A stretch of 64,000 bases of DNA, from assembly GCA_022969815.1 (NCBI GenBank), contig GCA_022969815.1_4535.1, one strand, 5' to 3'. Below, in pieces: positions 1-11,090 of this stretch (position 1 is its first letter; the number at the start of each line of letters is the position of its first letter). A model generated the notes under the pieces. That model was not told the origin of the DNA. It saw nothing but the letters and a program-made list of their open reading frames with translations, and made no database searches. The position numbers and the translations under genes are program-made. The stretch comes from Escherichia coli. GTDB taxonomy: Bacteria > Pseudomonadota > Gammaproteobacteria > Enterobacterales > Enterobacteriaceae.

Positions 1-36
1 CAGTTTTTCTACGGTAACAATAGCGATAGTTTCCAT
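1..36 (-). CDS. 5' end of a leftward early gene that runs off the window edge (partial)
   Basis: ATG at 34-36 (minus) reads METIAIVTVEKL..., preceded by GAGGA SD and by promoter-hairpin module at 55-111. Confidence 0.3.
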   Translation of the reverse strand, partial: METIAIVTVEKL

Positions 37-54
37 TTTGTTTTCCTCATTATC

Positions 55-111
55 GGCGGCACCATTGCCGCCCTACGCATTAAATATAAGTTATCTAAGA
101 GATTAGATCAA
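55..111 (-). promoter_or_regulatory. early promoter-hairpin module E1
   Basis: hairpin GGCGGCACCATTGCCGCC 55-72; -10 TTATAT (rc of 84-89); -35 TTGATC (rc of 106-111); 16-nt spacer. Confidence 0.55.
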
Positions 112-114
112 GGA

Positions 115-306
115 TTATTTTGTAAAGATTACAGCTTCATCAAAATTTTCAACATAGTAAGCAAGCTCTTCATTTGCTGCAACCAGTTGTAAAAGTTGGT
201 CGTAAGATAATCCATTGATCCCCTCTTCATTGTTTAAAGCCTCGATGATTTCATCAACGGGGGCAAAAAACATGTTATTCGATTCCAGGTAGCTGATAGT
301 TTTCAT
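115..306 (-). CDS. hypothetical early protein, 63 aa
   Basis: ATG at 304-306, purine-rich SD, own promoter-hairpin module upstream; no recognisable motif. Confidence 0.6.
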   Translation of the reverse strand: MKTISYLESNNMFFAPVDEIIEALNNEEGINGLSYDQLLQLVAANEELAYYVENFDEAVIFTK

Positions 307-328
307 AATGTTTTACCTTTTTCGGGGA

Positions 329-384
329 GCGGCACCATTGCCGCCCTACGTGGTAAATATTAGCACACTGGCGATCGGTGTCAA
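329..384 (-). promoter_or_regulatory. early promoter-hairpin module E2
   Basis: -35 TTGACA (rc 379-384), 16-nt spacer, -10 TAATAT (rc 357-362), then CACGTAGGG and hairpin GCGGCA-CCAT-TGCCGC (329-344) at predicted 5' end of the 115..306 mRNA. Confidence 0.7.
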
Positions 385-390
385 TACTTT

Positions 391-777
391 TTATTCAATA
401 TAAATCAAATTATCTTCACCAATGTAAGCCGACACGTTCGGCATAAACTTAGCTGCATTTGTTAGGCGGTTCGCCGTGTTAGTGGTGTATACTTCAGGGC
501 GATCCCAGAATCCTACGCCGTGACCGTTACGGGTAAAATGTAAATCATTGCCGATCTGGTTGGCTGTAGCGCCGTCGCTCATTGCTTCCGCAATAGCGGC
601 AAGATTAGCATTAATAAAGGCTGTTACATCCTGGGCGATCCGTTCATCCGCACCAGGAGAAAAATCATAATCGTCTAAGTTATCAATAAAATCACCTTCG
701 TGATCCCTGGCGGATTCAGCAAAAATAAAGGCTTCTTTATAACCGTTGATGATTTCAATAATGATTTCTGTTTTCAT
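391..777 (-). CDS. hypothetical early protein, 128 aa
   Basis: ATG 775-777; ATGA overlap with upstream gene; no recognisable motif. Confidence 0.65.
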   Translation of the reverse strand: MKTEIIIEIINGYKEAFIFAESARDHEGDFIDNLDDYDFSPGADERIAQDVTAFINANLAAIAEAMSDGATANQIGNDLHFTRNGHGVGFWDRPEVYTTNTANRLTNAAKFMPNVSAYIGEDNLIYIE

Positions 778-989
778 GCTGTACGCTCGACAATAATAAT
801 AGTTTGCGGGATCTCGTTTTCTACTACTAACAAGGCTTTTTTCTGTGTAATAGATATTTTAACACGTTGTAACGTAGCGGTAAAGTCTTTCATTTCGTTA
901 TGTGCGGACTTGCTGCAATGCCAGATCTCAGGCTTACCGACTTGCAAACCGCGTAAAAATTCCGTTTTGCCTGTTTTGTTCGTGATCAT
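774..989 (-). CDS. hypothetical early protein, 71 aa
   Basis: track ORF 774..998 begins with GTG; in-frame ATG at 987-989 with AAGGTG SD chosen. Confidence 0.5.
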   Translation of the reverse strand: MITNKTGKTEFLRGLQVGKPEIWHCSKSAHNEMKDFTATLQRVKISITQKKALLVVENEIPQTIIIVERTA

Positions 990-999
990 TTGTTTCACC

Positions 1000-1104
1000 T
1001 TACCCGATACCGTGGGAAGATAGGATCATATTAGCCATAGTTGCAACCACTCCAACCGATAACGCCAGGCCAACTACTGCAACCGTGAAAATTTTCTCTA
1101 ACAT
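1000..1104 (-). CDS. small hydrophobic peptide, 34 aa (not in ORF track)
   Basis: ATG 1102-1104, GAGGG SD, reads MLEKIFTVAVVGLALSVGVVATMANMILSSHGIG, sits directly after promoter module E3. Confidence 0.35.
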   Translation of the reverse strand: MLEKIFTVAVVGLALSVGVVATMANMILSSHGIG

Positions 1105-1122
1105 GATGCTACCCTCATTAAT

Positions 1123-1185
1123 GGGCGTTGCCTTATTGCCCCGCCCTACAAGATGAATACTACGCGCTTACTTTGCTGTTGTCAA
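1123..1185 (-). promoter_or_regulatory. early promoter module E3 (variant leader)
   Basis: -35 TTGACA (rc 1180-1185), 17-nt spacer, -10 TAGTAT (rc 1157-1162), GC stem GGGCG...CGCCC 1123-1146; leader shares CAAGATGAATACTACG with E20. Confidence 0.55.
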
Positions 1186-1350
1186 CAACGGGCGAAAAAA
1201 CTTTTTGATCTGGCTTGCTGTTAGGCGCATATCTGCTTTGAGCGTTGCCAGGCGATAAGCTTTACCCTTGATCAGTTTATGGTGTCCGGTGCCGTTGCCG
1301 ATGATAACATCAATTTCACACAATACACGGGAATAATCAATCTTTTTCAT
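1168..1350 (-). CDS. hypothetical early protein, 60 aa
   Basis: ATG 1348-1350, module E4 upstream. Confidence 0.5.
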   Translation of the reverse strand: MKKIDYSRVLCEIDVIIGNGTGHHKLIKGKAYRLATLKADMRLTASQIKKFFRPLLTTAK

Positions 1351-1370
1351 GTTGTTACCTTTCGTGTTAT

Positions 1371-1427
1371 GGGGGCGCTTGTCGCCCCCTGTCTGATAAA
1401 GATAATCCCTTTCGGGATATCTGTCAA
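1371..1427 (-). promoter_or_regulatory. early promoter-hairpin module E4
   Basis: hairpin GGGGGCGCTTGTCGCCCCC 1371-1389; -10 TATCTT (rc 1399-1404); -35 TTGACA (rc 1422-1427). Confidence 0.55.
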
Positions 1428-1433
1428 CTATTT

Positions 1434-1619
1434 TTATTGTACGGTGTGGCGATCGCTGTATTCAGCGTAAAACTCACATCCATCGTCACGGCTATCAAGT
1501 TTAACGATATATCCACTATTCCAACGTTCAACTGATACTACCGGATAATACTTCCCGTTAAGGATATTTTTCACCAGGTCGCCTTTTACCAGTTCTTTCG
1601 TTTTCTTATAAGTAGTCAT
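1434..1619 (-). CDS. hypothetical early protein, 61 aa
   Basis: track ORF 1434..1700 runs through promoter hairpin E5; internal ATG at 1617-1619 chosen (MTTYKKTKELVKG...). Confidence 0.55.
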   Translation of the reverse strand: MTTYKKTKELVKGDLVKNILNGKYYPVVSVERWNSGYIVKLDSRDDGCEFYAEYSDRHTVQ

Positions 1620-1639
1620 GATGTTTTCTCTTCTGTTTT

Positions 1640-1700
1640 GCGGTGGACCGTTCCGCCGCCCTATGTGGTAAACTATACGCGCCAACGTTCCAGGCGTCAA
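1640..1700 (-). promoter_or_regulatory. early promoter-hairpin module E5
   Basis: hairpin 1640-1659; -10 TATAGT (rc 1672-1677); -35 TTGACG (rc 1695-1700); 17-nt spacer. Confidence 0.65.
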
Positions 1701-1730
1701 GCATATTTTTAAAATTATTTTCTACAACGT

Positions 1731-1757
1731 AAAACGCCCCAGCATAAACCAGGGCGC
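1731..1757 (-). terminator. candidate intrinsic terminator after gene 1818..2045
   Basis: minus-sense hairpin GCGCCC-loop-GGGCG followed by UUUU. Confidence 0.45.
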
Positions 1758-1817
1758 ACTAATTAAATCAGATAGGGGATTGCATTGCCTTACACCTTTT
1801 AGGCTGTTAGCTGGCGA

Positions 1818-2045
1818 TTAGTAGCGTAGGATGTTTACGGATTCATCGCGCCCTAAAATATTCTCATATCTGTTTCCCCTTCCTTCGTACCAGATGATCA
1901 CGGTGTCAGGATCAAACGGATTGTTTTCGATAGCCGTTACCTTGCAGAAGTCATAAGACGGGAACGGATAAACGCCAACCTGTAAACGCGCCCGATCTCC
2001 TGGGCGAATAGTAGCGGCACGATCTGCAATGATATTGTTATACAT
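1818..2045 (-). CDS. hypothetical early protein, 75 aa
   Basis: ATG 2043-2045; no recognisable motif. Confidence 0.55.
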   Translation of the reverse strand: MYNNIIADRAATIRPGDRARLQVGVYPFPSYDFCKVTAIENNPFDPDTVIIWYEGRGNRYENILGRDESVNILRY

Positions 2046-2169
2046 GGTGCACCCCCTTAATATTTTTCTTTTTCTTTGCTTCCAACCGTCTAAGGTTACG
2101 GCTTGACTTATTGCGCAAGGCGCTTAGATCGTCGTACCCTTTCCATGCTTGCATATCTTTCGGATTCAT
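2038..2169 (-). CDS. small basic protein, 43 aa (not in ORF track)
   Basis: ATG 2167-2169 with AAGGGGGG SD 12 nt after the stop of 2181..2459; reads MNPKDMQAWKGYDDLSALRNKSSRNLRRLEAKKKKNIKGVHHV. Confidence 0.4.
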   Translation of the reverse strand: MNPKDMQAWKGYDDLSALRNKSSRNLRRLEAKKKKNIKGVHHV

Positions 2170-2180
2170 GTTATCCCCCC

Positions 2181-2459
2181 TTAACGATTATAAACATTAT
2201 GGATGGCTTCAAAGGCAAGATGACCATAAGCCGCCAAATCGGGATTGATCCAAGCGTTATCCAACATCGTTTCAAGGACTGTGGAATCATCGTATAAAGC
2301 ATCATAGAAATCTGCACGGATGATCGTTTCAATGTCGTCCGGTGTTAGTTTGTCGTTCAACTTGCACACTGTTTCAACGTCAACACCAATTTTCCAATTT
2401 TGTAAATTAGTGGTTAACATTGTTTTCATTTCTTCGGTTGTTAATTTAACGATGGTCAT
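2181..2459 (-). CDS. hypothetical early protein, 92 aa
   Basis: ATG 2457-2459, module E6 upstream. Confidence 0.6.
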   Translation of the reverse strand: MTIVKLTTEEMKTMLTTNLQNWKIGVDVETVCKLNDKLTPDDIETIIRADFYDALYDDSTVLETMLDNAWINPDLAAYGHLAFEAIHNVYNR

Positions 2460-2483
2460 GATTTTTTCTCTCTTCTGTTAGGC

Positions 2484-2538
2484 GGGGCGCTTGTCGCCCC
2501 TATGTGATACATCTTATCAGGTTGATTCAGCTTGTCAA
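2484..2538 (-). promoter_or_regulatory. early promoter-hairpin module E6
   Basis: hairpin GGGGCGCTTGTCGCCCC 2484-2500; -10 TAAGAT (rc 2511-2516); -35 TTGACA (rc 2533-2538). Confidence 0.65.
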
Positions 2539-2539
2539 A

Positions 2540-2719
2540 CTATTTGTTAGCCGGATTATATGCCAGGACCGCGCCGCTCGCTTTCACGCTTTCCGTTTCA
2601 TAGTTGCGCAGATCGTTTTCTGTAAGATTGAGCGCGATCACTTCCTCGATCTCAATGCCAGTGGCAAGGGCGATCTCTTTAATGATGTTTGATGATCTGA
2701 TAACGTTTACTGTTTTCAT
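2540..2719 (-). CDS. hypothetical early protein, 59 aa
   Basis: internal ATG 2717-2719 with AAGGTG SD chosen over the longer track ORF 2540..2776. Confidence 0.5.
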   Translation of the reverse strand: MKTVNVIRSSNIIKEIALATGIEIEEVIALNLTENDLRNYETESVKASGAVLAYNPANK

Positions 2720-2729
2720 GGTGTGCACC

Positions 2730-2849
2730 TTATAAGATGATTGATAAGATAGTGATAACGAAAGCGATAACACCAACGGCGATCGTAGTCTTACGCCCTT
2801 CAGATACTGCCGGATTCTCTACCGTGTATTCTACTGTGTATTTGTTCAT
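2730..2849 (-). CDS. small C-terminally membrane-anchored peptide, 39 aa (not in ORF track)
   Basis: ATG 2847-2849, GAGAGG SD, reads MNKYTVEYTVENPAVSEGRKTTIAVGVIAFVITILSIIL; follows module E7. Confidence 0.35.
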   Translation of the reverse strand: MNKYTVEYTVENPAVSEGRKTTIAVGVIAFVITILSIIL

Positions 2850-2872
2850 TGTGTTATCCTCTCGCTTGCTTT

Positions 2873-2929
2873 GGGAACTATTCCCGCCGCCCTATGAATT
2901 AAATATACACTATCCCAAAATGATTGCAA
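2873..2929 (-). promoter_or_regulatory. early promoter-hairpin module E7
   Basis: hairpin GGGAACTATTCCC 2873-2885; -10 TATATT (rc 2902-2907); -35 TTGCAA 2924-2929. Confidence 0.5.
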
Positions 2930-2948
2930 GCCTTTTTCTAAATTATTT

Positions 2949-3233
2949 TTATGCAGTAAACAGACCATCATTTACAACGGCGGCGATGATCTCCCGCGCC
3001 ATTGATTCAGGAAACGGGGCGCTATAGTCCTGGCTTGTCTCGTCGCTGTCTGTTACCCAATGATAAGCCAACGAGTAAAAGCCTTTACTCCCTGTTTTCA
3101 GTGAAACGATGATCACTCGGTTAAGTCCATCGGTAAACGTTGCCGTTAATGTGCTATCATCTTGCGTCATATTGGACAAGTAAGCGGCATCATTAACCAG
3201 GGAAAACAGTAGCACCGTGTTAGCTTTAACCAT
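2949..3233 (-). CDS. hypothetical early protein, 94 aa
   Basis: track ORF start lies inside hairpin E8; in-frame ATG 3231-3233 with GAGGA SD chosen. Confidence 0.55.
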   Translation of the reverse strand: MVKANTVLLFSLVNDAAYLSNMTQDDSTLTATFTDGLNRVIIVSLKTGSKGFYSLAYHWVTDSDETSQDYSAPFPESMAREIIAAVVNDGLFTA

Positions 3234-3253
3234 GATTTGATCCTCAAACGGGC

Positions 3254-3310
3254 GCGGCACCATTGCCGCCCTACGTAATACAGTTTACCCTATTTCTTCC
3301 AAAAAGCAAG
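3254..3310 (-). promoter_or_regulatory. early promoter-hairpin module E8
   Basis: hairpin GCGGCACCATTGCCGC 3254-3269; -10 TAAACT (rc 3282-3287); -35 TTGCTT (rc 3304-3309). Confidence 0.5.
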
Positions 3311-3490
3311 TTTATTTGCAATTGGTGACAAATAACGTTTACCCGCGTAAAACAGTACAGCGACACTAACCACGGCGGCGATCTCATGCATAACCGACGG
3401 GAAACGAGTATCATAATAAGATCCAATAATAGCAATAGCGGCAACGGCTGCAACGTCGATAATGATTTTTTCTTGTTTTGCGGTGATCAT
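3290..3490 (-). CDS. small membrane protein, 66 aa
   Basis: ATG 3488-3490; hydrophobic stretch DVAAVAAIAIIGSYY and VVSVAVLFYAG. Confidence 0.55.
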   Translation of the reverse strand: MITAKQEKIIIDVAAVAAIAIIGSYYDTRFPSVMHEIAAVVSVAVLFYAGKRYLSPIANKLAFWKK

Positions 3491-3514
3491 AATATTTACC
3501 TTTTTGTATGGTGG

Positions 3515-3571
3515 GGGGAACTATTCCCCGCCTGATGTAATACAGTTTAACAGGTCCGGTTATGGTGTCAA
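3515..3571 (-). promoter_or_regulatory. early promoter-hairpin module E9
   Basis: hairpin GGGGAACTATTCCCC 3515-3529; -10 TAAACT (rc 3544-3549); -35 TTGACA (rc 3566-3571). Confidence 0.6.
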
Positions 3572-3577
3572 CCACTT

Positions 3578-3763
3578 TTAAAGATATTTTATGTTGATAA
3601 CGTTTTCCGGTTTAACCTGGTTGTGATAAGCATCAATGTAAATCAAACCATCATCGGACACGCCCAGGATCACGCCTTGCGCAATAAAACCGTATTGGTC
3701 GCGGTAACGTGCTGCCACTTTGTTCGCTGCGTTGTAGGCTGTTTTAATCTCGTTTAAGGTCAT
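3578..3763 (-). CDS. hypothetical early protein, 61 aa
   Basis: ATG 3761-3763. Confidence 0.5.
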   Translation of the reverse strand: MTLNEIKTAYNAANKVAARYRDQYGFIAQGVILGVSDDGLIYIDAYHNQVKPENVINIKYL

Positions 3764-3793
3764 GTGCTGTTATACTCTCGTTAGATATAAGAA

Positions 3794-3812
3794 AGGGCGC
3801 TATTTGCGCCCT
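3794..3812. terminator. intergenic hairpin, candidate attenuator
   Basis: AGGGCGC-TATTT-GCGCCCT with T-rich flank. Confidence 0.35.
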
Positions 3813-3821
3813 TGATTTGTT

Positions 3822-3968
3822 TTAGTCTTCCAGGTCCATCCATGCACGTTTCTCGGTGCGGTCGCGCTTAGTTTTGTTGCGCTTGTCGCCCTTGCGGATC
3901 ACTTCCTCATTCCACGCTGCGCGTGTTTTGGAGGATTGGATTTTTTCGGCGCGATTAGATGTATTCAT
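3822..3968 (-). CDS. small basic protein, 48 aa (not in ORF track)
   Basis: ATG 3966-3968, AGAGGA SD, reads MNTSNRAEKIQSSKTRAAWNEEVIRKGDKRNKTKRDRTEKRAWMDLED; follows module E10. Confidence 0.4.
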   Translation of the reverse strand: MNTSNRAEKIQSSKTRAAWNEEVIRKGDKRNKTKRDRTEKRAWMDLED

Positions 3969-3992
3969 GATGTTTCCTCTTTTTAGTTGTGA

Positions 3993-4049
3993 GCGGCACC
4001 ATTGCCGCCCTACGTGTTTAAATTTACTTTATTGCTTGATGCCTGTCAA
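3993..4049 (-). promoter_or_regulatory. early promoter-hairpin module E10
   Basis: hairpin 3993-4008; -10 TAAATT (rc 4021-4026); -35 TTGACA (rc 4044-4049); 17-nt spacer. Confidence 0.65.
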
Positions 4050-4066
4050 CTACTTTTAAAAACTTT

Positions 4067-4420
4067 TTATTCGTGGGAAAGTGTAAGGATCACCCCTGCA
4101 ATATATAACCAATAGTTTTCCCTTTCTTTCTGGATCTTGTTTTCGCTACTACGTTCGTTAATGTACCCCCAGGCTGTTAACAACCGATCTACTTCCCAAT
4201 ACTCGAAAGCTATATTAATATTTGACGGCAATCCTTGTAACCATGATGCTATTGCTCTGATAATATTATGATCGTAACGTTTTTGATTATCGGTATACCA
4301 ATACTCGGATTTAAAACAGCGCATCAATTCCGCGATCTTCTCTTTATCTTCTGTGATGCCATACTCGCTATAATCAATTGAGGCCAGAATATAAAGTTTA
4401 ATTGCATTCTGTGCTTTCAT
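4067..4420 (-). CDS. hypothetical early protein, 117 aa
   Basis: ATG 4418-4420, module E11 upstream. Confidence 0.65.
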   Translation of the reverse strand: MKAQNAIKLYILASIDYSEYGITEDKEKIAELMRCFKSEYWYTDNQKRYDHNIIRAIASWLQGLPSNINIAFEYWEVDRLLTAWGYINERSSENKIQKERENYWLYIAGVILTLSHE

Positions 4421-4441
4421 GTTGTCTCTCTTCTGTTGTGA

Positions 4442-4497
4442 GCGGCACCATTGCCGCCCTATGTGTTACATCTTACCGGATTTTTAAAACTTGTCAA
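4442..4497 (-). promoter_or_regulatory. early promoter-hairpin module E11
   Basis: hairpin 4442-4457; -10 TAAGAT (rc 4470-4475); -35 TTGACA (rc 4492-4497). Confidence 0.65.
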
Positions 4498-4718
4498 TCA
4501 TTTTTTACTATCATTTGATACCCTGTTTCCAGGTTAGTAAACACCGTGATCCCGTCCTGGCGTTCACTCATAAGCAAGCAAGGCGCTAACATCCTTCCTA
4601 CTTCCTTGCACTCGTTATAAGCGGCGGTAATGTCTCCCGCTGCCTTGTCTTCTGTGGTGAATGTATCGTTCACGTAAACTTGACCAGCGACAACGGCGAC
4701 AATAGCGAAAGTGATCAT
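4494..4718 (-). CDS. hypothetical protein with hydrophobic N-terminus, 74 aa
   Basis: internal ATG 4716-4718 (MITFAIVAVVAGQVYV...) chosen over the longer track ORF 4494..4790. Confidence 0.5.
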   Translation of the reverse strand: MITFAIVAVVAGQVYVNDTFTTEDKAAGDITAAYNECKEVGRMLAPCLLMSERQDGITVFTNLETGYQMIVKND

Positions 4719-4796
4719 AATGTTTTTCTCTTTATGTGTTTCATTTCGATTAGTTGATAATACGGCAATTCGCAGATTAGTCTTTAGCAATTCATG

Positions 4797-5015
4797 CTAT
4801 TTACTCACAACAATATCGAAAACAAATTTTTCTTTGTTGTCTAAGCTCACGTATCCGATTCGACCACGCAATCCGTGAGTAGTGCCGTATTCGTAACCAT
4901 CCAGACCTTTAACCTTCCAATCCATGCCCATTAAAACCGCATTATATTTCTGACCAACTACAAAAGCGCCACCAGTTGATTCAATGCAAATAACTTTAAT
5001 TTTACGGATTGCCAT
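4797..5015 (-). CDS. hypothetical early protein, 72 aa
   Basis: ATG 5013-5015. Confidence 0.55.
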   Translation of the reverse strand: MAIRKIKVICIESTGGAFVVGQKYNAVLMGMDWKVKGLDGYEYGTTHGLRGRIGYVSLDNKEKFVFDIVVSK

Positions 5016-5054
5016 TTTCTTTCTCTCTCTGTGGTAATTGGTTTCTCTTCTCTA

Positions 5055-5090
5055 TAACGCCCATTATAGGGCGTTATAACGAAAAGTCAA
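5055..5090 (-). promoter_or_regulatory. early promoter with palindrome over the -10 region
   Basis: -35 TTGACT (rc 5085-5090), 16-nt spacer, -10 TATAAT (rc 5063-5068), palindrome TAACGCCC-ATTA-TAGGGCGTTA 5055-5076. Confidence 0.6.
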
Positions 5091-5091
5091 A

Positions 5092-5259
5092 TTATTTTTT
5101 ACGGCTTAAGGTGCCCAGGTTATCAGCGTGGCGCAAACCAGGGAAGATCCACGCGCCTGATGCATCTTTCACAGGGGCTTTAAGCGTAGCGCCCAGGTTG
5201 GCGGCGTTAACTTTACGGGCAACGTTGCGAGCGGCTTCACGGGTAGTAAAAGTGATCAT
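5092..5259 (-). CDS. small protein, 55 aa (not in ORF track)
   Basis: ATG 5257-5259, reads MITFTTREAARNVARKVNAANLGATLKAPVKDASGAWIFPGLRHADNLGTLSRKK; follows module E12. Confidence 0.4.
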   Translation of the reverse strand: MITFTTREAARNVARKVNAANLGATLKAPVKDASGAWIFPGLRHADNLGTLSRKK

Positions 5260-5283
5260 GATGTTTTCCTCTTCTCTTTGTTA

Positions 5284-5345
5284 GGCGGTGGACCATTCCG
5301 CCGCCTTGATGTAATACAGTTTACTTTATTTTGTTAAGATTGCAA
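5284..5345 (-). promoter_or_regulatory. early promoter-hairpin module E12
   Basis: hairpin 5284-5305; -10 TAAACT (rc 5318-5323); -35 TTGCAA 5340-5345. Confidence 0.55.
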
Positions 5346-5351
5346 GTAGTT

Positions 5352-5567
5352 TTATGAAATAATTGTCAAAGTAAAATCATAATCTTTTGACAGTTTATAT
5401 TGCACCTTGTTACCGTATATGTCACCTTTACGTAAAGATCCACGGATACCGATAACATCCTTCACGTCTTTTAAATTTTTCACGCCTGTAATGTCTTTGT
5501 TGAAATACTCGTCATCTGAAAATAAAACTTGACTTGCATTTTTTAACAGTGTGCGGATATTAGCCAT
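5352..5567 (-). CDS. hypothetical early protein, 71 aa
   Basis: ATG 5565-5567. Confidence 0.55.
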   Translation of the reverse strand: MANIRTLLKNASQVLFSDDEYFNKDITGVKNLKDVKDVIGIRGSLRKGDIYGNKVQYKLSKDYDFTLTIIS

Positions 5568-5591
5568 TGAGATAATCTCTCTTTGTTGTGA

Positions 5592-5647
5592 GCGGCACCA
5601 TTGCCGCCCTACGTAATACAGTTTACTCTTTTTCTTTCCGGTGTCAA
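5592..5647 (-). promoter_or_regulatory. early promoter-hairpin module E13
   Basis: hairpin 5592-5607; -10 TAAACT (rc 5620-5625); -35 TTGACA (rc 5642-5647). Confidence 0.65.
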
Positions 5648-5656
5648 CAATCTTTT

Positions 5657-5884
5657 TCAGATTAATTCATCCAGGCATAACAGGCGATCAACGTTGAGAT
5701 CGGTCAGGCTGATGGTTGGCACCTGATAGGATTCGATGTACTCGACGCTCGCATATTCCCCAAAATTAGCAATAGCCCACTTATTCAAGATCTCACATAC
5801 ATCATTAATCTTTTTATTTGTTACAACTGCAATAACCTGGGAAGTGCCAACGGTGCCGGATACGCGAACAATATTGATAGCCAT
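5657..5884 (-). CDS. hypothetical early protein, 75 aa
   Basis: internal ATG 5882-5884 chosen; the longer track ORF runs into hairpin E14. Confidence 0.55.
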   Translation of the reverse strand: MAINIVRVSGTVGTSQVIAVVTNKKINDVCEILNKWAIANFGEYASVEYIESYQVPTISLTDLNVDRLLCLDELI

Positions 5885-5906
5885 GATTTTTCTCTCTTCG
5901 TTAGGC

Positions 5907-5961
5907 GGGGCGCTTGTCGCCCCTATGTGATACATCTTACACTAATTTTAAACGTTGTCAA
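5907..5961 (-). promoter_or_regulatory. early promoter-hairpin module E14
   Basis: hairpin 5907-5923; -10 TAAGAT (rc 5934-5939); -35 TTGACA (rc 5956-5961). Confidence 0.65.
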
Positions 5962-6056
5962 ATTATTTTCTATTTCTTCCGTAATAGCCCAATTTATGAT
6001 CTAAGCTAAAACGTTTTGTTAGATAGGTTGAACGATGTTTCATTTTTATGTCTCCT

Positions 6057-6296
6057 TTACATTCCAACCATAGCGGCGCGGATTGCAGTAGTGCTATATT
6101 TGAATCCGTCCGGTGTTTTATCTTGTCCAGTCTGTTCTAAAAATAACATCATATGACGGGCCGCATCATTGCGATTAGTGTTGTCGTTAATAAAATCCAG
6201 GGCCAACCGATACAATCCCTCATCGTTATTAATCCACAGGCTTACATTCCAATGAGTTTTGTTTTTGTGACCGTTGTACATTTTAGATTTAGCCAT
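6057..6296 (-). CDS. hypothetical early protein, 79 aa
   Basis: ATG 6294-6296. Confidence 0.55.
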   Translation of the reverse strand: MAKSKMYNGHKNKTHWNVSLWINNDEGLYRLALDFINDNTNRNDAARHMMLFLEQTGQDKTPDGFKYSTTAIRAAMVGM

Positions 6297-6317
6297 GATT
6301 TTTCTCTCTTTTTGTTA

Positions 6318-6379
6318 GGCGGTGGACCATTCCGCCGCCTTGATGTAATACAGTTTACTCTTTTTCTTCGTGCTGTCAA
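6318..6379 (-). promoter_or_regulatory. early promoter-hairpin module E15
   Basis: hairpin 6318-6339; -10 TAAACT (rc 6352-6357); -35 TTGACA (rc 6374-6379). Confidence 0.65.
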
Positions 6380-6385
6380 TGCTTT

Positions 6386-6751
6386 TTATAGATCTTTTTT
6401 ACGTTTAACATCGCTTGCATGACTGTATACAGTGATCCCATTGTCACGGCAAAAACGGGAAAGATACGCACCGCGTGAAAATTCCTTGCCCTCAAGGTTG
6501 ATAACCTTGCTAAATTCTTCCAGGGCGACGGTATCGAAATGATCACCATAACCATATTGAAACGGCACGTTAACCACTTCAACCAATTTACCGCAGATCT
6601 CAACGTCTACACTTAAAGAAAAATATGTATTACCGTAGGACTGTTGAAACCAGCGACGGGCGCTAATATGCACCGCCTCAATGCTGGATAATTCAATTTT
6701 AGCCGTGTTAGCCAGGGTAGCATAAGCGGAAACATTGATATTAATAGCCAT
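6386..6751 (-). CDS. hypothetical early protein, 121 aa
   Basis: ATG 6749-6751. Confidence 0.6.
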   Translation of the reverse strand: MAININVSAYATLANTAKIELSSIEAVHISARRWFQQSYGNTYFSLSVDVEICGKLVEVVNVPFQYGYGDHFDTVALEEFSKVINLEGKEFSRGAYLSRFCRDNGITVYSHASDVKRKKDL

Positions 6752-6777
6752 GATGATAATCTCTCTTTTTGGTTAGT

Positions 6778-6829
6778 GGGAAGTATTCCCGATAAAAGTT
6801 ATTATGCTTATACTATCACTCATTGTCAA
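6778..6829 (-). promoter_or_regulatory. early promoter-hairpin module E15b
   Basis: hairpin GGGAAGTATTCCC 6778-6790; -10 CATAAT (rc 6801-6806); -35 TTGACA (rc 6824-6829); 17-nt spacer. Confidence 0.6.
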
Positions 6830-6848
6830 TAGTATAAGACTAAAACTT

Positions 6849-7028
6849 TTAACGATAATCGTTATAGGCTTTATTGACCTGGCGAATGTAACATTCGAAA
6901 GCAAGATCAATGTATTCGTATTCACGCACATAATCACCATAGGTCACTACATACATTTTTAAAGTTTCCTCATAAGCCAGGAGGATCGAATCTAAACCTA
7001 TAATCTCAGTTTTTGCAATGATAGCCAT
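6849..7028 (-). CDS. small protein, 59 aa (not in ORF track)
   Basis: ATG 7026-7028, reads MAIIAKTEIIGLDSILLAYEETLKMYVVTYGDYVREYEYIDLAFECYIRQVNKAYNDYR; follows module E16. Confidence 0.4.
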   Translation of the reverse strand: MAIIAKTEIIGLDSILLAYEETLKMYVVTYGDYVREYEYIDLAFECYIRQVNKAYNDYR

Positions 7029-7049
7029 GATGTTAACCTTTTTATTGTT

Positions 7050-7106
7050 GGCGGCACCATTGCCGCCCTACGTGATAAACTATAACAGAATTTTAAACAG
7101 TGTCAA
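7050..7106 (-). promoter_or_regulatory. early promoter-hairpin module E16
   Basis: hairpin 7050-7067; -10 TATAGT (rc 7079-7084); -35 TTGACA (rc 7101-7106). Confidence 0.65.
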
Positions 7107-7116
7107 ACGTTTTTTC

Positions 7117-7362
7117 TTAGTTTGCGAAATATGGCGCGGCGGCTGATGCCGTTAAGCTCCAAGTGATTTGACTATCGATCAAGTATTCTTCATTCTTGAT
7201 CCGCACGGTATCAATCGAGAAGTTACTAAAAGGCTTACTTTTAATTTTACGAATAACCGTTACACGGCGATCACCTTTCATCTCTTTTAACTGAATCCAG
7301 GCGTAACCTTTTTCATTGACAAAAATTTCATTGTGGTTGGTGATAGATGATAGGTGTTTCAT
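7117..7362 (-). CDS. hypothetical early protein, 81 aa
   Basis: internal ATG 7360-7362 chosen; the longer track ORF runs into hairpin E17. Confidence 0.55.
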   Translation of the reverse strand: MKHLSSITNHNEIFVNEKGYAWIQLKEMKGDRRVTVIRKIKSKPFSNFSIDTVRIKNEEYLIDSQITWSLTASAAAPYFAN

Positions 7363-7383
7363 GATTTCTCTCTTCTGTTTTGA

Positions 7384-7443
7384 GCGGTGGACCATTCCGC
7401 CGCCCTATGTGTTACATCTTACTACTTTTTTAAACATTGTCAA
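7384..7443 (-). promoter_or_regulatory. early promoter-hairpin module E17
   Basis: hairpin 7384-7403; -10 TAAGAT (rc 7416-7421); -35 TTGACA (rc 7438-7443). Confidence 0.65.
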
Positions 7444-7451
7444 GGATATTT

Positions 7452-7733
7452 TTAACTATATGATCCACATCGTTCGCAGTAGTGATCATCGTCGTCATCT
7501 GCTACCTGGCTGATAAAGTGATCAACCTTTGATTTCAGGTTTTTATAGTCGTTTTCGACTTCCTGTAGTCGTCGCTGGTAATATTCCAGGGCTTGCACAT
7601 ATGCCGCTTGTTCGGTTTTCGCTTGCATTGCTAAATTCATGCCGCGCGTTTCATCATACAGCCAATACCCATCATTGCACCCGCTAATTGATAGTGTAGG
7701 GCTTAGTTTTTCGTGGCTGATTGCCTTGCTCAT
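7452..7733 (-). CDS. hypothetical early protein with C-terminal CxxC, 93 aa
   Basis: track start is GTG; in-frame ATG 7731-7733 with AAGGTGG SD chosen; coiled-coil-like middle. Confidence 0.55.
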   Translation of the reverse strand: MSKAISHEKLSPTLSISGCNDGYWLYDETRGMNLAMQAKTEQAAYVQALEYYQRRLQEVENDYKNLKSKVDHFISQVADDDDDHYCERCGSYS

Positions 7734-7743
7734 AGTGTCCACC

Positions 7744-7935
7744 TTACAAAATGACTACGTTATCTTTTTCGTGCAGTGTGGCGGTAATGTTGCGCCCTTT
7801 GTCGCACATTAGCGAGATCTTGCGGTGATGCGGTGGCACTTTCTCGATGTGCGCTACTGTCATTGTGATCCGGTGCAATTCTACTTTGTCACCTGCTTTC
7901 AATGTTGCTACGTTGCCAGTGATATTTTTAAACAT
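7744..7935 (-). CDS. hypothetical early protein, 63 aa
   Basis: in-frame ATG 7933-7935 with AAGGGG SD chosen over the longer track ORF. Confidence 0.5.
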   Translation of the reverse strand: MFKNITGNVATLKAGDKVELHRITMTVAHIEKVPPHHRKISLMCDKGRNITATLHEKDNVVIL

Positions 7936-7945
7936 GGTGCGCCCC

Positions 7946-8056
7946 TTACTTGAAAATGATTGTTGTGATAACTGCCACGGTGATCCAAAATGGAACAACC
8001 AAGATAATAGCGTTAATAGTTCCAACTGTCAAACTATTTTCTTTCTTGATCATCAT
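7946..8056 (-). CDS. small membrane peptide, 36 aa
   Basis: track ORF 7946..8176 starts with GTG inside hairpin E18; ATG 8054-8056 with AAGGA SD gives MMIKKENSLTVGTINAIILVVPFWITVAVITTIIFK. Confidence 0.3.
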   Translation of the reverse strand: MMIKKENSLTVGTINAIILVVPFWITVAVITTIIFK

Positions 8057-8169
8057 GTTTTCCTTACAGTGTCCAAAGAATGATTTCAAGTGCAGCACGG
8101 AAACCAGGAATAAAATTGATTGCAAAAAACAGGGAAGTAGTAGACATTTTTCTATCCTTTCAGTTGTGA

Positions 8170-8225
8170 GCGGCACCGTTGCCGCCCTATGAGTTAACTA
8201 TAAGTGATCACGTTTTACCTGTCAA
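8170..8225 (-). promoter_or_regulatory. early promoter-hairpin module E18
   Basis: hairpin GCGGCACCGTTGCCGC 8170-8185; -10 TTATAG (rc 8198-8203); -35 TTGACA (rc 8220-8225). Confidence 0.55.
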
Positions 8226-8779
8226 CCTAAATCATCAAAATAAAGATAATTTTTTTCGGCTTCTTTCTTCTCTTCCTGCGTTGCCTCAAAGACTGGGAGG
8301 AAGTGATCAAAGGCTATGCACTCAACCGCGTGATCGTCTTCCTCTTCCTGGTCTTCCTCCTGGGCTATGGCTGCAATTTTGGCCAATTTCCTTTCAGCCT
8401 GGATAAGCTTACCATCTAATACGCTTTTTGCAGTACTGTACGCCGTCCAGGTGATGCGCTTACTTTCGAGCGCGGCATCAAGCGCCGCTATCTTGCTGGG
8501 GTATTCATCCAGGACACGAAAAGCCGGATCTACCTTGTACAGCGGATTATCTTTCGCGCCGTCGCTATCATCTGCGGCGCTTGCAATGTCAGCGTTACCA
8601 TTCGCCAGCCAACCAGGGCGATCGCTGCGTGTTTTGGTATTCCCATGACTACGCGCCGATCTGTTGCCTACTTGCTCGCCACTATAACCAGGAGCGTGAT
8701 CGATCATGTCATCCGGTACAATACGCGGATCATTAGCGTCATGTTTTACCCAGGACTGGATCACATATTCGCGCCCCAT
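8222..8779 (-). CDS. hypothetical early protein with acidic patches, 185 aa
   Basis: ATG 8777-8779, AAGGGG SD; acidic run QEEDQEEEDD. Confidence 0.6.
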   Translation of the reverse strand: MGREYVIQSWVKHDANDPRIVPDDMIDHAPGYSGEQVGNRSARSHGNTKTRSDRPGWLANGNADIASAADDSDGAKDNPLYKVDPAFRVLDEYPSKIAALDAALESKRITWTAYSTAKSVLDGKLIQAERKLAKIAAIAQEEDQEEEDDHAVECIAFDHFLPVFEATQEEKKEAEKNYLYFDDLG

Positions 8780-9039
8780 TATACACCCCTTTTAACAATC
8801 ATTTCACACACAAAAAATAAACTGGCGGAATCACGGCAAGGGTAGAAAGATGTGCGATAATCTCTCACCCCTGCTTTTATGATCTCCGTGGTTTTACCTG
8901 ATAGCACATTGTAAATAGTGTAACTTGTCGGACTGTTTTTATATACCTTGCCAGGGTAGATCATAACATAACGAGCAAGGTTATAAAATTCCTCGTTACG
9001 AAAAGCTATGATCTTCCCGCATACCTTAAGAAAATGCAC
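8779..9039 (-). CDS. hypothetical early protein, 86 aa (GTG start)
   Basis: GTG 9037-9039 with AGGGGG SD; alternative ATG at 8962-8964 lacks an SD. Confidence 0.4.
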   Translation of the reverse strand: MHFLKVCGKIIAFRNEEFYNLARYVMIYPGKVYKNSPTSYTIYNVLSGKTTEIIKAGVRDYRTSFYPCRDSASLFFVCEMIVKRGV

Positions 9040-9048
9040 GTTAGCCCC

Positions 9049-9321
9049 CTACAGCAAAAAGTTTACTTGTCTTGCTGTTAATGTAGTATCAACCATCTTC
9101 GGGCTTTTATAATCCACAAAGCGCGCGGTTTTTTCAATAGCGAAACCGAGATAATCTTGCTTGTTGAAATTACATTCTTTCTTAAATGTCTCCCGTGCAA
9201 TGGCGATCGCTGCGTCCAGGGATAAACGCCCGTCAATATTGATATTAGCGAAAGATCCGCCACCGCTCATAGGTTTACCAGTTGTGCCCGTTACGATCAT
9301 TGTTGCGCTATATGATGCCAT
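9049..9321 (-). CDS. hypothetical early protein, 90 aa
   Basis: internal ATG 9319-9321 chosen; the longer track ORF runs into hairpin E19. Confidence 0.55.
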   Translation of the reverse strand: MASYSATMIVTGTTGKPMSGGGSFANINIDGRLSLDAAIAIARETFKKECNFNKQDYLGFAIEKTARFVDYKSPKMVDTTLTARQVNFLL

Positions 9322-9345
9322 GATGATAATCTCTCTTAGTTGTGA

Positions 9346-9405
9346 GCGGTGGACCATTCCGCCGCTCTACGTGATACATCTTATCAGGTTGTTGCCTGTT
9401 GTCAA
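9346..9405 (-). promoter_or_regulatory. early promoter-hairpin module E19
   Basis: hairpin 9346-9365; -10 TAAGAT (rc 9378-9383); -35 TTGACA (rc 9400-9405). Confidence 0.65.
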
Positions 9406-9411
9406 TACTTT

Positions 9412-9609
9412 TTATTCAAGCCCTACGATATGTAAGACACGGCGATCAGCCGTGGCGTGCTGGTCGTCTGTTATAACGCCCATTTCTACCAGGGAATCAA
9501 GGAAGGAAAGCACCGTGATATATTCGTCATCGGGTACACTCATTTCATTAGTACCGTTTACCACTACGCTGATTTGTCCTGCTTTCGCTACTATGTGCAA
9601 TGTTGCCAT
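9412..9609 (-). CDS. hypothetical early protein, 65 aa
   Basis: ATG 9607-9609, GGAG SD. Confidence 0.55.
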   Translation of the reverse strand: MATLHIVAKAGQISVVVNGTNEMSVPDDEYITVLSFLDSLVEMGVITDDQHATADRRVLHIVGLE

Positions 9610-9720
9610 GATCTTAACTCCAGGTGATGAATGATGTTTTTTGTTGGTGGACGGTGGATTATGGAGATCCTCACCTTTGCCCGTCCTACATTGCGCCCTC
9701 CTGTTGTTTATTGTCGTTGT

Positions 9721-9773
9721 GCCTCGCCCCCCTCGACAAGATGAATACTACGCTACCAGGTGCGGAACGTCAA
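9721..9773 (-). promoter_or_regulatory. early promoter E20 (variant leader, about 130-nt 5' UTR)
   Basis: -35 TTGACG (rc 9768-9773), 17-nt spacer, -10 TAGTAT (rc 9745-9750); GC-rich leader shares a motif with E3. Confidence 0.5.
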
Positions 9774-9844
9774 CCACTTTTTCAATCTTTTTTATTTTCT
9801 TTTTGCTTGCTATATATAAAGGAAAGGGCTATCATCTTTCTACC

Positions 9845-9860
9845 GCGCCAACCAGGGCGC
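9845..9860 (+). promoter_or_regulatory. GC hairpin in the leader of the rightward gene 9883..10149
   Basis: GCGCC-AACCAG-GGCGC just upstream of the SD; AT-rich promoter-like sequence at 9795-9836. Confidence 0.35.
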
Positions 9861-9882
9861 ACAACAAAGAAAGGGCGACACC

Positions 9883-10149
9883 ATGACAACTACTACATTA
9901 CACCTCATGCACTCGTTAGGCTGGCAAGGCGGCACGGTCCACCAGGTAGCAAGCGCAACGGGCTTAAAGGTTGAAACCGTTCTCAACCTGGGCGATCATA
10001 AAGTGGAAGAGATAGATCATTTTGATTCGTTCGCTGATGGTTATTTATGGGCTTGCAGTGGCGGCGGGGAAAGCAAGATACCGCCAGGGGCGCGGGGTGA
10101 TATGTATTTTTGGTTAGGCGTTCTTGCCTGGCAAGAAGACAAAAAATAG
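9883..10149 (+). CDS. hypothetical protein, 88 aa (lone rightward gene)
   Basis: ATG 9883, AAGGG SD; divergent from the early array. Confidence 0.45.
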   Translation: MTTTTLHLMHSLGWQGGTVHQVASATGLKVETVLNLGDHKVEEIDHFDSFADGYLWACSGGGESKIPPGARGDMYFWLGVLAWQEDKK

Positions 10150-10151
10150 TC

Positions 10152-10180
10152 TTGACAAGCCCAGGGATCGGGCTTATACT
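10152..10180 (+). promoter_or_regulatory. strong sigma70-type promoter reading into the non-coding region
   Basis: -35 TTGACA 10152-10157, 17-nt spacer, -10 TATACT 10175-10180; no ORF with a start codon downstream for more than 100 nt. Confidence 0.7.
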
Positions 10181-10186
10181 GTTTTA

Positions 10187-10285
10187 CATACAGAAGAGGA
10201 AGCGCCACCCCCACGGCGTAAAGGCGGGGCTAACATACCAGGGGCACCGGTTGGAAGGTCGATCGCCGGGAGGCTGGGCGCTATA
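10187..10285 (+). ncRNA. candidate structured GC-rich transcript
   Basis: about 65% GC with complementary runs (GCGCCACCCCC, GGCGGGG, CCGG-N-CCGG) downstream of the 10152 promoter; 3' end undefined. Confidence 0.3.
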
Positions 10286-10400
10286 TATTTGTAAAGAAAT
10301 GTAAAGATAAAATAATCGCTTGCTTTCCTGGCTGGATCTGTTATTCTTATTACATGGCGAGGGGACACGGGAGCGCGAGATAATCACCGGACCTGCCCGT

Positions 10401-10640
10401 CATTCTCTAAATGAGAATGATTATCATTTACCTTATTGAATAAAAATCAATCTTATTTGGATAGTTGAATGAGAATCAATCTCATTCGCAAGGTGAGAAT
10501 AAATCTCATTTACGCTATTGAATGCGAATCATTCGTATTTACCATGTTGAATGAGAATCATTATCATTTCCGATGCGAAATGAGAATCATTATCATTCTC
10601 ATTCGTATTTCGATTTTAAGTGAGAATAATTCTCATTTCG
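10401..10640. repeat. array of about 7 inverted repeats on GAGAAT/ATTCTC and AATGAG/CTCATT half-sites
   Basis: CATTCTC-TAAAT-GAGAATG (10401-10419), AATGAGAAT-N7-ATTCTCATT, GAGAATAATTCTC (10622-10634) and others. Confidence 0.7.
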
Positions 10641-10653
10641 GTAATTTTCACGC

Positions 10654-10711
10654 AAACTTTAGAATTTGCTTTTCAACTTTCACTTTTGTAAAAGCAAAAA
10701 AACTTTAAATA
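10654..10711. repeat. 58-bp direct repeat, copy R1
   Basis: AAACTTTAGAATTTG...TTTTGTAAA...TTTAAATA, about 80% identical to R2. Confidence 0.7.
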
Positions 10712-10757
10712 CCTGGTGCGCGCGACTTTTTTAAAAATTTTTCTCGGTTTTTTTGTT

Positions 10758-10787
10758 TTGCAATCTGGTCCACCCATTTGAGATAAT
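10758..10787 (+). promoter_or_regulatory. extended -10 promoter
   Basis: -35 TTGCAA 10758-10763, 18-nt spacer, TGaGATAAT 10779-10787; predicted start at the beginning of R2. Confidence 0.45.
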
Positions 10788-10793
10788 GTGTGT

Positions 10794-10851
10794 AAACTTT
10801 AGAATTTGGTTTTGGATTCTCGTTTTTGTAAACTCATAAAAAGTTTAAATA
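10794..10851. repeat. 58-bp direct repeat, copy R2
   Basis: second copy of the R1 unit. Confidence 0.7.
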
Positions 10852-10888
10852 ATTGTAGGGATTTTTGAGATAGTTTGCTTGTAAGATT

Positions 10889-10897
10889 TGAGATAAT
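10889..10897 (+). promoter_or_regulatory. second copy of the extended -10 element ATTTGAGATAAT
   Basis: TGaGATAAT 10889-10897, weak -35; predicted start near 10904. Confidence 0.35.
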
Positions 10898-10903
10898 CTT
10901 TCC

Positions 10904-11006: not shown

Positions 11007-11090
11007 GGTTGTAGGAGCCTTTTTCTGTGGCACAAAGTTGACGTATTCTTTTTAAAAACGAATTTTTTCAAAATATCACGAATATCGCCT

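Follow-up and report, generated by a model that had tools for sequence, protein, structure and literature searches.

Promoter and stem-loop cassettes of probable 5′-stabilizing function in the small-gene array of a phAPEC8-like coliphage

At the left end of a 64,000-nucleotide stretch of DNA from an Escherichia coli assembly (GenBank GCA_022969815.1, contig GCA_022969815.1_4535.1; hereafter the window) lies an array of small genes whose longer intergenic gaps carry a recurrent composite element, a σ70-type promoter followed by a GC-rich hairpin. The array comprises 34 small open reading frames (ORFs) of 25–185 amino acids in one run on the minus strand (36–9609), served by 22 curated σ70-type promoters on the same strand (36–9785). 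BLAST comparison of the first 10 kb matches Phapecoctavirus coliphages including ESCO25, nieznany, phiWec179 and relatives of phAPEC8, and by this similarity the window is a Phapecoctavirus, phAPEC8-like genome. Each of the 241 matching records covers at most 62% of the query in 5–11 pieces, with the relatives covering 50–62% of the array region, and this patchy coverage marks the region as mosaic within a phAPEC8-like genome. Over 5 kb, PsgM04F, which is labelled as a Pseudomonas phage, shares 96% identity with these coliphages, and records labelled as Campylobacter phages A110a, A142 and A145 and as Acinetobacter, Serratia and Klebsiella phages are near-identical to them; judged by sequence likeness, the host labels of PsgM04F and such records look doubtful.

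We name each element by the first base of its −35 hexamer, which is the upper coordinate of its minus-strand interval. Of the 22 intergenic gaps that measure 50 nucleotides (nt) or more, 20 contain elements; the two exceptions are 3764–3821, which holds a true terminator, and 4719–4796. The 13 other gene boundaries are tight or overlapping, and the array is therefore built of units of one to four genes. All promoter spacers measure 16–17 nt, the −10 hexamers fit TAnnnT, most promoters have an A-tract upstream and the −35 hexamer is a perfect TTGACA in 17 of 22, bearing out an earlier sequence-only reading in which this combination recurs in nearly every gap. That reading also gave each of about 22 promoters a hairpin, which holds for the promoters but only in part for the hairpins: the standard order, a −10 hexamer, then (G)TATCAC-R-TAGGG and a GC-rich hairpin, is found in 19–20 of the 22 elements, with 9773 (a 128-nt leader and weak hairpin), 5090 (a hairpin that wraps the −10) and 1185 (an irregular stem) atypical.

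The cassette array is real and statistically solid. A strict pattern, TTGACA-N15-19-TANNNT-N5-10-TAGGG, finds 10 matches against 0.01 expected, all on the minus strand between 344 and 8225, and a generic promoter scan returns 49 sites against 24 ± 5 in shuffled sequence, its top scorers being almost all array promoters. A covariance model built from 20 copies on the register of the commonest hairpin family (F1) gives 20 matches in the 64 kb, 19 on the minus strand of the array (41–9383) and one on the plus strand at 28723–28773, with no match on the opposite strand of the array or elsewhere in the window. Every RTAGGGSGG motif has a −10/−35 pair upstream, leaving zero orphan hairpins, and hairpins occur only behind promoters, the internal genes of small operons having none.

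To place the hairpin on the transcript, the start site (+1) was taken as the purine of CAC-R-TAGGG, a pyrimidine–purine step 7–8 nt after the −10 in standard σ70 geometry. CAC itself follows the −10 after only 4 nt, not the approximately 7 nt first described; it is the purine that is the seventh or eighth nucleotide. Predicted transcripts thus begin 5′-RUAGGGCGG, and in standard window copies the stem begins 10–12 nt past the −10, at +4. The geometry-based 5′ overhang is 0 or 3–5 nt, and in folded leaders of G-start copies of families F1 and F2, G1 and U2 are also paired, leaving no overhang. Hairpins of −11 to −16 kcal mol−1 are present in 19–20 of the 22 cassettes, with a Shine–Dalgarno sequence and ATG within the next 17–23 nt; 20 predicted leaders fold at −11 to −19 kcal mol−1, 15 of them with z scores of −2 to −4.4, and all of the leader downstream of the hairpin, including the purine-rich ribosome-binding site, is predicted to be unpaired. 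The same geometry extends to a set of 116 distinct elements drawn from ten sources: pairing begins 11–12 nt after the −10 in 74 and at 8 nt in 19 more, in which outer pairs reach +1; the −10 to ATG distance is 51.9 ± 3.8 nt; and hairpin length is anticorrelated with linker length (r = −0.49). Of 101 distinct elements, 68 fold better as the sense than as the antisense strand (p = 1.6 × 10−4), with 36 G·U pairs, a folding advantage that favours a role at the RNA level. The proposal that transcripts start with the hairpin thus agrees with all in silico tests (start geometry, lack of a T-run, free ribosome-binding site and promoter coupling), as predicted from the DNA.

All four hairpin families first read from the sequence hold up, and the promoter types TAAGAT, TAAACT and TATAGT combine freely with them. 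F1, GGGCGGCA-ATGG-TGCCGCTC (the reverse complement of the plus-strand spelling), has eight copies, given here with their interval, promoter (−35, spacer length, −10), +1, hairpin and start codon: 8225 (8148–8225; TTGACA-17-TATAGT; A 8190; 8187–8168 with loop AACGG; ATG 8147), 7106 (7029–7106; TTGACA-16-TATAGT; G 7071; 7071–7047 with its 5′ end paired; ATG 7028), 5647 (5568–5647; TTGACA-16-TAAACT; G 5612; 5612–5588; ATG 5567), 4497, the best match to the covariance model (4421–4497; TTGACA-16-TAAGAT; A 4462; 4459–4440; ATG 4420), 4049 (3969–4049; TTGACA-17-TAAATT; G 4013; 4013–3989; ATG 3968) and 384 (307–384; TTGACA-16-TAATAT; G 349; 346–327; ATG 306). Cassette 3309 (3234–3309) has a weak −35, TTGCTT, within the end of the upstream ORF, followed by a TAAACT hexamer at 3287–3282, +1 at G 3274, its F1 hairpin at 3271–3251 and ATG 3233. 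The last copy, 111 (37–111; TTGATC-17-TATATT; G 76; 72–55; ATG 36), precedes a gene that runs off the left end of the window, and the array therefore extends past it. F2, GGCGGCGGA-ATGG-TCCACCGCC, has five copies: 9405 (9322–9405; TTGACA-16-TAAGAT; G 9370; 9370–9342; ATG 9321), 7443 (7363–7443; TTGACA-16-TAAGAT; A 7408; 7405–7382; ATG 7362), 6379 (6297–6379; TTGACA-16-TAAACT; A 6344; 6340–6317; ATG 6296), 5345 (5260–5345; TTGCAA-16-TAAACT; A 5310; 5306–5283; ATG 5259) and 1700 (1620–1700; TTGACG-17-TATAGT; A 1664; 1659–1640 with loop ACGG; ATG 1619).

The two remaining families have three copies each. GGGGCG-ACAAG-CGCCCC (F3) follows promoters 5961 (5885–5961; TTGACA-16-TAAGAT; A 5926; 5923–5907; ATG 5884), 2538 (2460–2538; TTGACA-16-TAAGAT; A 2503; 2500–2484; ATG 2459) and 1427 (1351–1427; TTGACA-17-TATCTT; 1389–1371; ATG 1350), the last of which carries a second stem-loop, ATCCC-GAAA-GGGAT (1418–1405), within the promoter spacer. 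GGG(G)AA-TAG/TAC-TTCC(C)C (F4) follows 3571 (GGCGGGGAA-TAG-TTCCCCCC at 3532–3513; 3491–3571; TTGACA-16-TAAACT; A 3536; ATG 3490) and, in shorter and weaker form, 6829 (GGGAA-TAC-TTCCC at 6790–6778; 6752–6829; TTGACA-17-CATAAT; A 6793; ATG 6751), where it folds at −5.5 kcal mol−1 and is not significant alone, and 2929 (GGGAA-TAG-TTCCC within GGGCGGCGGGAATAGTTCCC, z −0.5; 2850–2929; TTGCAA-16-TATATT; A 2895; ATG 2849).

Among the three atypical elements, 1185 (1105–1185; TTGACA-17-TAGTAT; G 1149; ATG 1104) has the irregular hairpin GGGCG..GGCAATAAGGCAA..CGCCC at 1146–1123. Promoter 5090 (5016–5090; TTGACT-16-TATAAT) has a leader without a hairpin; instead an 11-base-pair (bp) stem, TTATAACGCCC/GGGCGTTATAG (5079–5069 with 5062–5052), presents the −10 hexamer TATAAT as its loop and folds, over 5047–5090, at −16.8 kcal mol−1 (z −5.3). 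The gene that this promoter drives (4797–5015) is absent from PsgM04F and ESCO25. Promoter 9773, the first of the array (9610–9773; TTGACG-17-TAGTAT), has a weak hairpin at 9737–9713 in a 128-nt leader without significant structure (z = 0.15). The long unstructured leader is common to the window, phiWec179 and phi92 at this position, where ESCO25 (its locus 10490–10690) instead combines a short leader with an F1 hairpin of the standard form; by comparison with ESCO25, cassette 9773 is one with an insertion or replacement of about 88 nt inside it.

The single plus-strand copy, proposed to lie upstream of terC, is likewise upheld: a solitary cassette at 28701–28778 combines TTGACA-16-TAAGAT (−35 at 28701), a +1 at A 28736 and the hairpin GCGGGGA-GTGGT-TCCCCGC (28741–28759), which ends 20 nt before the ATG at 28779 of a gene identified as terC by Pfam (TerC, 3 × 10−39). 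The gene spans 28779–29753 (+) and is accompanied by telA at 31861–32973 (+), both being tellurite-resistance-type membrane or stress genes. Possession of its own early-type cassette suggests that terC is expressed as an early auxiliary gene. A NADAR-domain gene is also carried; together, the terC, telA and NADAR-domain genes are noted at 28779–32973 (+) and 11091–11618 (−).

A motif search across related phages recovered the same design in phi92, FV3, phiTE and others. In BLAST, one 96-nt cassette matches 768 places in 153 phage records, which include Phapecoctavirus, Justusliebigvirus (phi92), Vequintavirus (FV3, slur16 and PDX) and Certrevirus (phiTE). The covariance model finds 145 matches in 217 kb (the window and nine related loci), all on the coding strand of small-gene arrays and 125 of them from the loci of the nine relatives. 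This spread makes the cassette a hallmark of the rV5-like group. The phAPEC8 genome has 16 copies in an array that spans the ends of its record; two of them (17923–17976 and 15981–16032) overlap the 5′ ends of annotated coding sequences, such as G377_gp150 at 17927, and those start codons may, on the evidence of the cassette positions, be annotated too far upstream. In IMG/VR, the pattern TCACRTAGGGCGG-N11-CCGC gives 20 loci, of which one, a 149.5-kb Phapecoctavirus-like contig, has real elements, the others being single matches of unclear origin.

Alignment of 125 distinct elements from two phage subfamilies yields the consensus A-tract (at about −45 to −39), TTGACA, N16, G-TAAAnT, GTATCAC, R, TAGGGCGG. 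In it the promoter spacer holds next to no information, but TAGGGCGG equals the −10 hexamer in this respect; the hairpin arm is therefore constrained, beyond what recent copying would leave. Per-sequence folding identifies at least 62 distinct hairpins at the same position; nearly all 62 variants keep the outer stem GGCGG/CCGCC, and the inner stem and loop vary. Stem insertions and deletions are paired between the arms (GCA/TGC versus GGA/TCC versus GGGAA/TTCCC versus GGGAAA/TTTCCC), and the C·A mismatch of F2 is repaired to C–G in PsgM04F and to T–A in phi92. The covariation score is 0.110, compared with 0.078 for shuffled alignments (none of 500 shuffles reaches it) and 0.002–0.039 for slid registers.

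We consider it roughly an even chance (about 0.5) that each element is a modular early cassette whose 5′ stem-loop shields the messenger RNA (mRNA) from RppH and RNase E, with start site, early timing and stabilization all inferred from the arrangement. Such a cassette would be a self-contained unit of about 90 bp: a UP-element-like A-tract, a near-consensus σ70 promoter (TTGACA, 16–17 nt, TAnnnT) and a start purine, then a GC-rich stem-loop from about +4 to +25. An A/C-rich linker without structure would join this to a purine-rich ribosome-binding site, with the ATG about 45 nt into the transcript. Host RNA polymerase would fire these promoters immediately upon infection, and each transcript would open with 0–4 unpaired nucleotides before a stable hairpin of −12 to −16 kcal mol−1. 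A 5′ end must be single-stranded for RppH and for the 5′ sensor of RNase E, and the hairpin would therefore slow 5′-end-dependent decay of these short early transcripts without hindering the initiation of translation; a block of these two activities is the accepted explanation of stabilization by 5′ hairpins (PMC3997798). On RNA reading through from an upstream promoter, the hairpin could double as a protective 3′ end. This proposal fits three features: the hairpins are coupled to promoters and not to ribosome-binding sites, they keep a constant spacing to the −10, and the ribosome-binding region is predicted to be free.

Several observations weigh against a stabilizing role. The +1 assignment depends on promoter geometry, and literature searches gave no transcription-start, RNA sequencing, half-life or timing study for this phage group. 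An overhang of 3–5 nt on A-start transcripts is the limit of RppH use, so that protection is perhaps partial, and only about 10% of E. coli mRNAs are RppH-dependent, so that a benefit is not guaranteed (PMC3997798). Hairpins 6829 and 2929 are weak (z of about −0.5), and three promoters have no standard hairpin. Covariation within a single structure is weak, with 75% of cells paired in an alignment fitted to the model; these weak statistics arise because the families differ in register and stem length, and per-sequence folding was relied on for pairing in place of the single-structure model. Finally, the sequence RTAGGGCGG is itself conserved, more than a passive stabilizer requires, which may reflect a factor that recognizes it, or concerted evolution. 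If the stabilizing role is correct, one standard promoter–leader module would express the host-takeover genes of a large group of therapeutic coliphages (hundreds of sequenced genomes) and offer a compact, strong, ready-made expression part for E. coli; it would also correct a misannotated ‘PHIRE promoter’ in the type genome of the genus and provide a simple marker of early transcription units in rV5-like genomes.

Conservation of sequence and not of pairing alone lends some weight to a tentative alternative, in which a phage or host protein binds the 5′ RUA and the GGCGG/CCGCC stem base and marks early RNA for protection, timed shut-off, translational control or nut-like antitermination. The level of information in TAGGGCGG, equal to that of the −10, and the retained outer stem speak for such a tag. 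There is also a precedent for discrimination between host and phage RNA, as the T4 protein Srd enhances RNase E attack on host mRNA, transcripts of the phage being stabilized (PMC4980113), and an Srd-like gp11 is reported in rV5 (PMC3606486), so that a 5′ mark of self would have a rationale. The loops, however, vary freely (AUGG, AUAG, UAG, UAC, UGG, ACAAG, GUGGU, UGU and AAC) on stems of 5–10 bp, which does not fit loop-specific binders such as λ N with boxB, and no candidate binding protein emerged: near the divergent promoters, Pfam, PHROGs and tblastn searches of the scanned ORFs returned proteins of unknown function only, none of them annotated as Srd-like or as another modulator of RNA decay. 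Nor does positions 1–9800 contain any match to the boxA core GCTCTTWA that a nut-type site would have, and at least nine different loops occur. The broadest form of the idea, a family-wide ‘self’ tag RUA-GGCGG...CCGCC on essentially all early transcripts of Stephanstirmvirinae and Vequintavirinae, read by a dedicated factor, is just as tentative; if true, the hairpin would be more than a passive stabilizer, and phage mRNAs could, for example, be exempt from phage-stimulated RNase E decay or be coordinately shut off.

A little less probable is an attenuating or terminating function of the kind proposed for the promoter and stem-loop cassettes of T4-type phages known as PeSLs (promoter-early stem-loops), in which the stem-loop would damp read-through from upstream and insulate each cassette. 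In RB49/phi1 a PeSL stem-loop cut lacZ expression about as much as rrnB T1 (PMC2839356), elements 5090 and 1427 carry promoter-internal stem-loops of PeSL type, and insulation would be useful in an array with two canonical terminators for 22 promoters. But the standard hairpins lie past their own predicted start, where an efficient terminator would abort its own transcript, and they are followed by CUCACAAC or CUAACAA with no T-run. A scan for hairpins with a T-run on the gene strand recovers none of the promoter-proximal hairpins, only the two canonical intrinsic terminators of the array at 1757–1734 (−) and 3813–3793 (−), the latter with an 8-bp stem and T-run at a site whose orthologue is annotated as an ARNold terminator in Schickermooser; by sequence, then, the hairpins do not resemble intrinsic terminators. 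The ARNold annotations of phAPEC8 and Schickermooser likewise did not call them.

An improbable reading places the function in DNA, with the inverted repeat at +4 to +25 acting as an operator for a dimeric phage repressor that shuts off early transcription. Overlap with the start region is ideal for repression, a shared site would allow coordinated shut-off and the outer half-sites GGCGG/CCGCC are conserved; yet the families space the half-sites anywhere from 8 to 12 bp apart, and insertions or deletions in one inner arm are matched in the other, changes tolerated by an RNA helix and not by a rigid DNA-binding dimer. The G·U pairs and the sense-strand folding advantage indicate RNA, and the F3 arms are wholly different.

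More doubtful still is the view that the approximately 90-bp cassettes persist by spreading, as recombination linkers or homogenized repeats shuffled in the manner of PeSLs, with a hairpin of little function in RNA. The mosaic coverage of the array by its relatives and the free combination of promoter types with hairpin families are in keeping with this view, as is the finding that 24 of 43 internal BLAST segment ends fall within elements that cover about 21% of the region. At element 2538, one flanking gene is 100% identical to ESCO25/phAPEC8 and the other 80%, a pattern reversed in phiWec179/PsgM04F, and the element itself is nearly identical in all four. Against these points, a presence/absence test over five non-independent relatives finds discordance at 19 of 87 boundaries with an element and 16 of 59 without (p = 0.55), an indel resolved to the base touches an element with just one of its two ends, and elements are no better conserved than genes at orthologous loci (87% versus 88%); the randomized promoter spacers beside conserved arms speak for selection acting on the hairpin. 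Gene shuffling of the PeSL kind, tested by these comparisons, gains no specific support from them and is unproven.

The T7-class promoter initiation region is CACTATAGGG. Stretches such as TATCAC-A-TAGGG at 4462–4475 (−) resemble the T7-class TCACTATAGGG but are one nucleotide shorter, a likeness that is probably coincidence or convergence. In the phAPEC8 RefSeq record, the 20-mer GTAGGGCGGCAATGGTGCCG of the hairpin is annotated at no fewer than 11 sites as a ‘putative promoter determined with PHIRE’, directly 3′ of a ‘host dependent promoter determined with MEME’; the repeat was thus already seen in 2012 but read as a phage promoter. Although that annotation and the likeness of CAC-A-TAGGG to the T7-class initiation region speak for a phage-specific promoter, PHIRE detects only repeated 20-mers, the motif always sits at a fixed distance from a σ70 promoter and never alone or before middle or late genes, its form is one nucleotide short of that of T7, and no phage RNA polymerase gene is reported for the group (PMC3606486, PMC7344957), so that its fixed fusion to σ70 promoters and the lack of a reported polymerase make this reading very unlikely.

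Beyond the cassettes, a non-coding region of about 1.2 kb adjoins the array and contains, at 10410–10637, six close copies of the inverted-repeat motif AATGAGAATCATTATCATT. Allowing up to 3 mismatches, the motif gives 11 strand-matches against 0.03 expected and none elsewhere in the window, and two copies each differ at 3 positions from GATAATGATAATCATTATC, the Fur-box consensus of E. coli; judged by these matches, the cluster could be a Fur-binding cluster or a set of replication-origin iterons. At 10152–10300 (+), about 115 nt of non-coding DNA lie behind a consensus promoter (TTGACA-17-TATACT). This stretch hardly differs in phi92 and remains closely similar in Pectobacterium phage phiTE; neighbouring array proteins, where they have a match in phiTE at all, are only 31–45% identical to it. 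Counterparts of the non-coding stretch in two relatives lie at 10919–11038 (−) in locus L007 and 9827–9946 (−) in locus L009. RNAalifold predicts two GC-rich helices with 24 pairs, one of them compensatory, and Rfam has no match to the stretch; we regard the predicted transcript as a candidate conserved small RNA. Across the 64 kb no Rfam family reached its gathering score, and for 9550–11150 a search that allowed E values up to 1 produced no meaningful match; no transfer RNA was found in a dedicated search.

Transcripts from the T7 φ10 promoter start with a stem-loop, that of the gene 10 leader. Known 5′ stabilizers include the ompA 5′ untranslated region, papA and a hairpin appended to bla (Emory, Bouvet, Arnold, Bricker and Belasco, as summarized in PMC3997798). 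The cassettes share with them a stable hairpin a few nucleotides from the 5′ end, here a predicted one, an accessible ribosome-binding site and the same proposed mechanism, a block to RppH and to the 5′ sensor of RNase E. The known cases are single genes, whereas here about 20 promoters per genome in two phage subfamilies are involved and RUAGGGCGG is conserved beyond the needs of pairing. With λ nut sites and rrn antiterminators the cassettes have in common a promoter-proximal transcribed hairpin followed by an A/C-rich CUCACAAC or CUAACAA, and the likeness to rrn boxA is faint, being confined to the AACAA end. They differ from those sites in the missing boxA core and unconserved loops, and with a promoter before nearly every gene, processive antitermination is not needed.

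Among closer relatives, σ70-like early promoters have been reported in a block of short hypothetical genes in rV5 (PMC3606486) and in the Certrevirus phages CB7 and CR3 (PMC7344957). These and the phAPEC8 promoters are the same as those described here, with an A-tract, TGTTGAC or TTGACA and TATAAT-like hexamers, but the rV5 and Certrevirus reports end at the −10 and leave the hairpin unmentioned.

The nearest counterparts are the PeSLs of T4-type phages (RB49/phi1, PST/T4 and nt-1/KVP40), cassettes of a σ70 promoter and a stem-loop in hyperplastic ORFan regions (Arbiol 2010, PMC2839356; Comeau 2014, PMC4122927). Termination, the shuffling of cassettes and the formation of mini-circles are the roles reported for PeSLs in these papers, and Arbiol 2010 distinguishes five subclasses, in which the stem-loop precedes the promoter, lies inside it or comes immediately ahead of its start site. 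In both systems, cassettes of about 100 bp recur between small ORFan genes within an early region that is plastic and mosaic, and both combine an AT-rich stretch, a near-consensus σ70 promoter, a GC-rich stem-loop, a Shine–Dalgarno sequence and a start codon. The stem-loops of 5090 and 1427 even lie inside the promoter, as in RB49. By contrast, 19–20 of the 22 stem-loops here follow the predicted start at a fixed +4, and they lack a T-run whereas PeSL stem-loops have in part been tested as terminators; placed past the predicted start and without terminator features, they depart from the defining PeSL placement. The lineage is also different, rV5-like and unrelated to T4-like phages. The elements are therefore best described as a variant of the known promoter and stem-loop cassettes with a probable 5′-stabilizing role, which extends such composite cassettes beyond T4-like phages and implies, through the different placement of the stem-loop, a different job for it.

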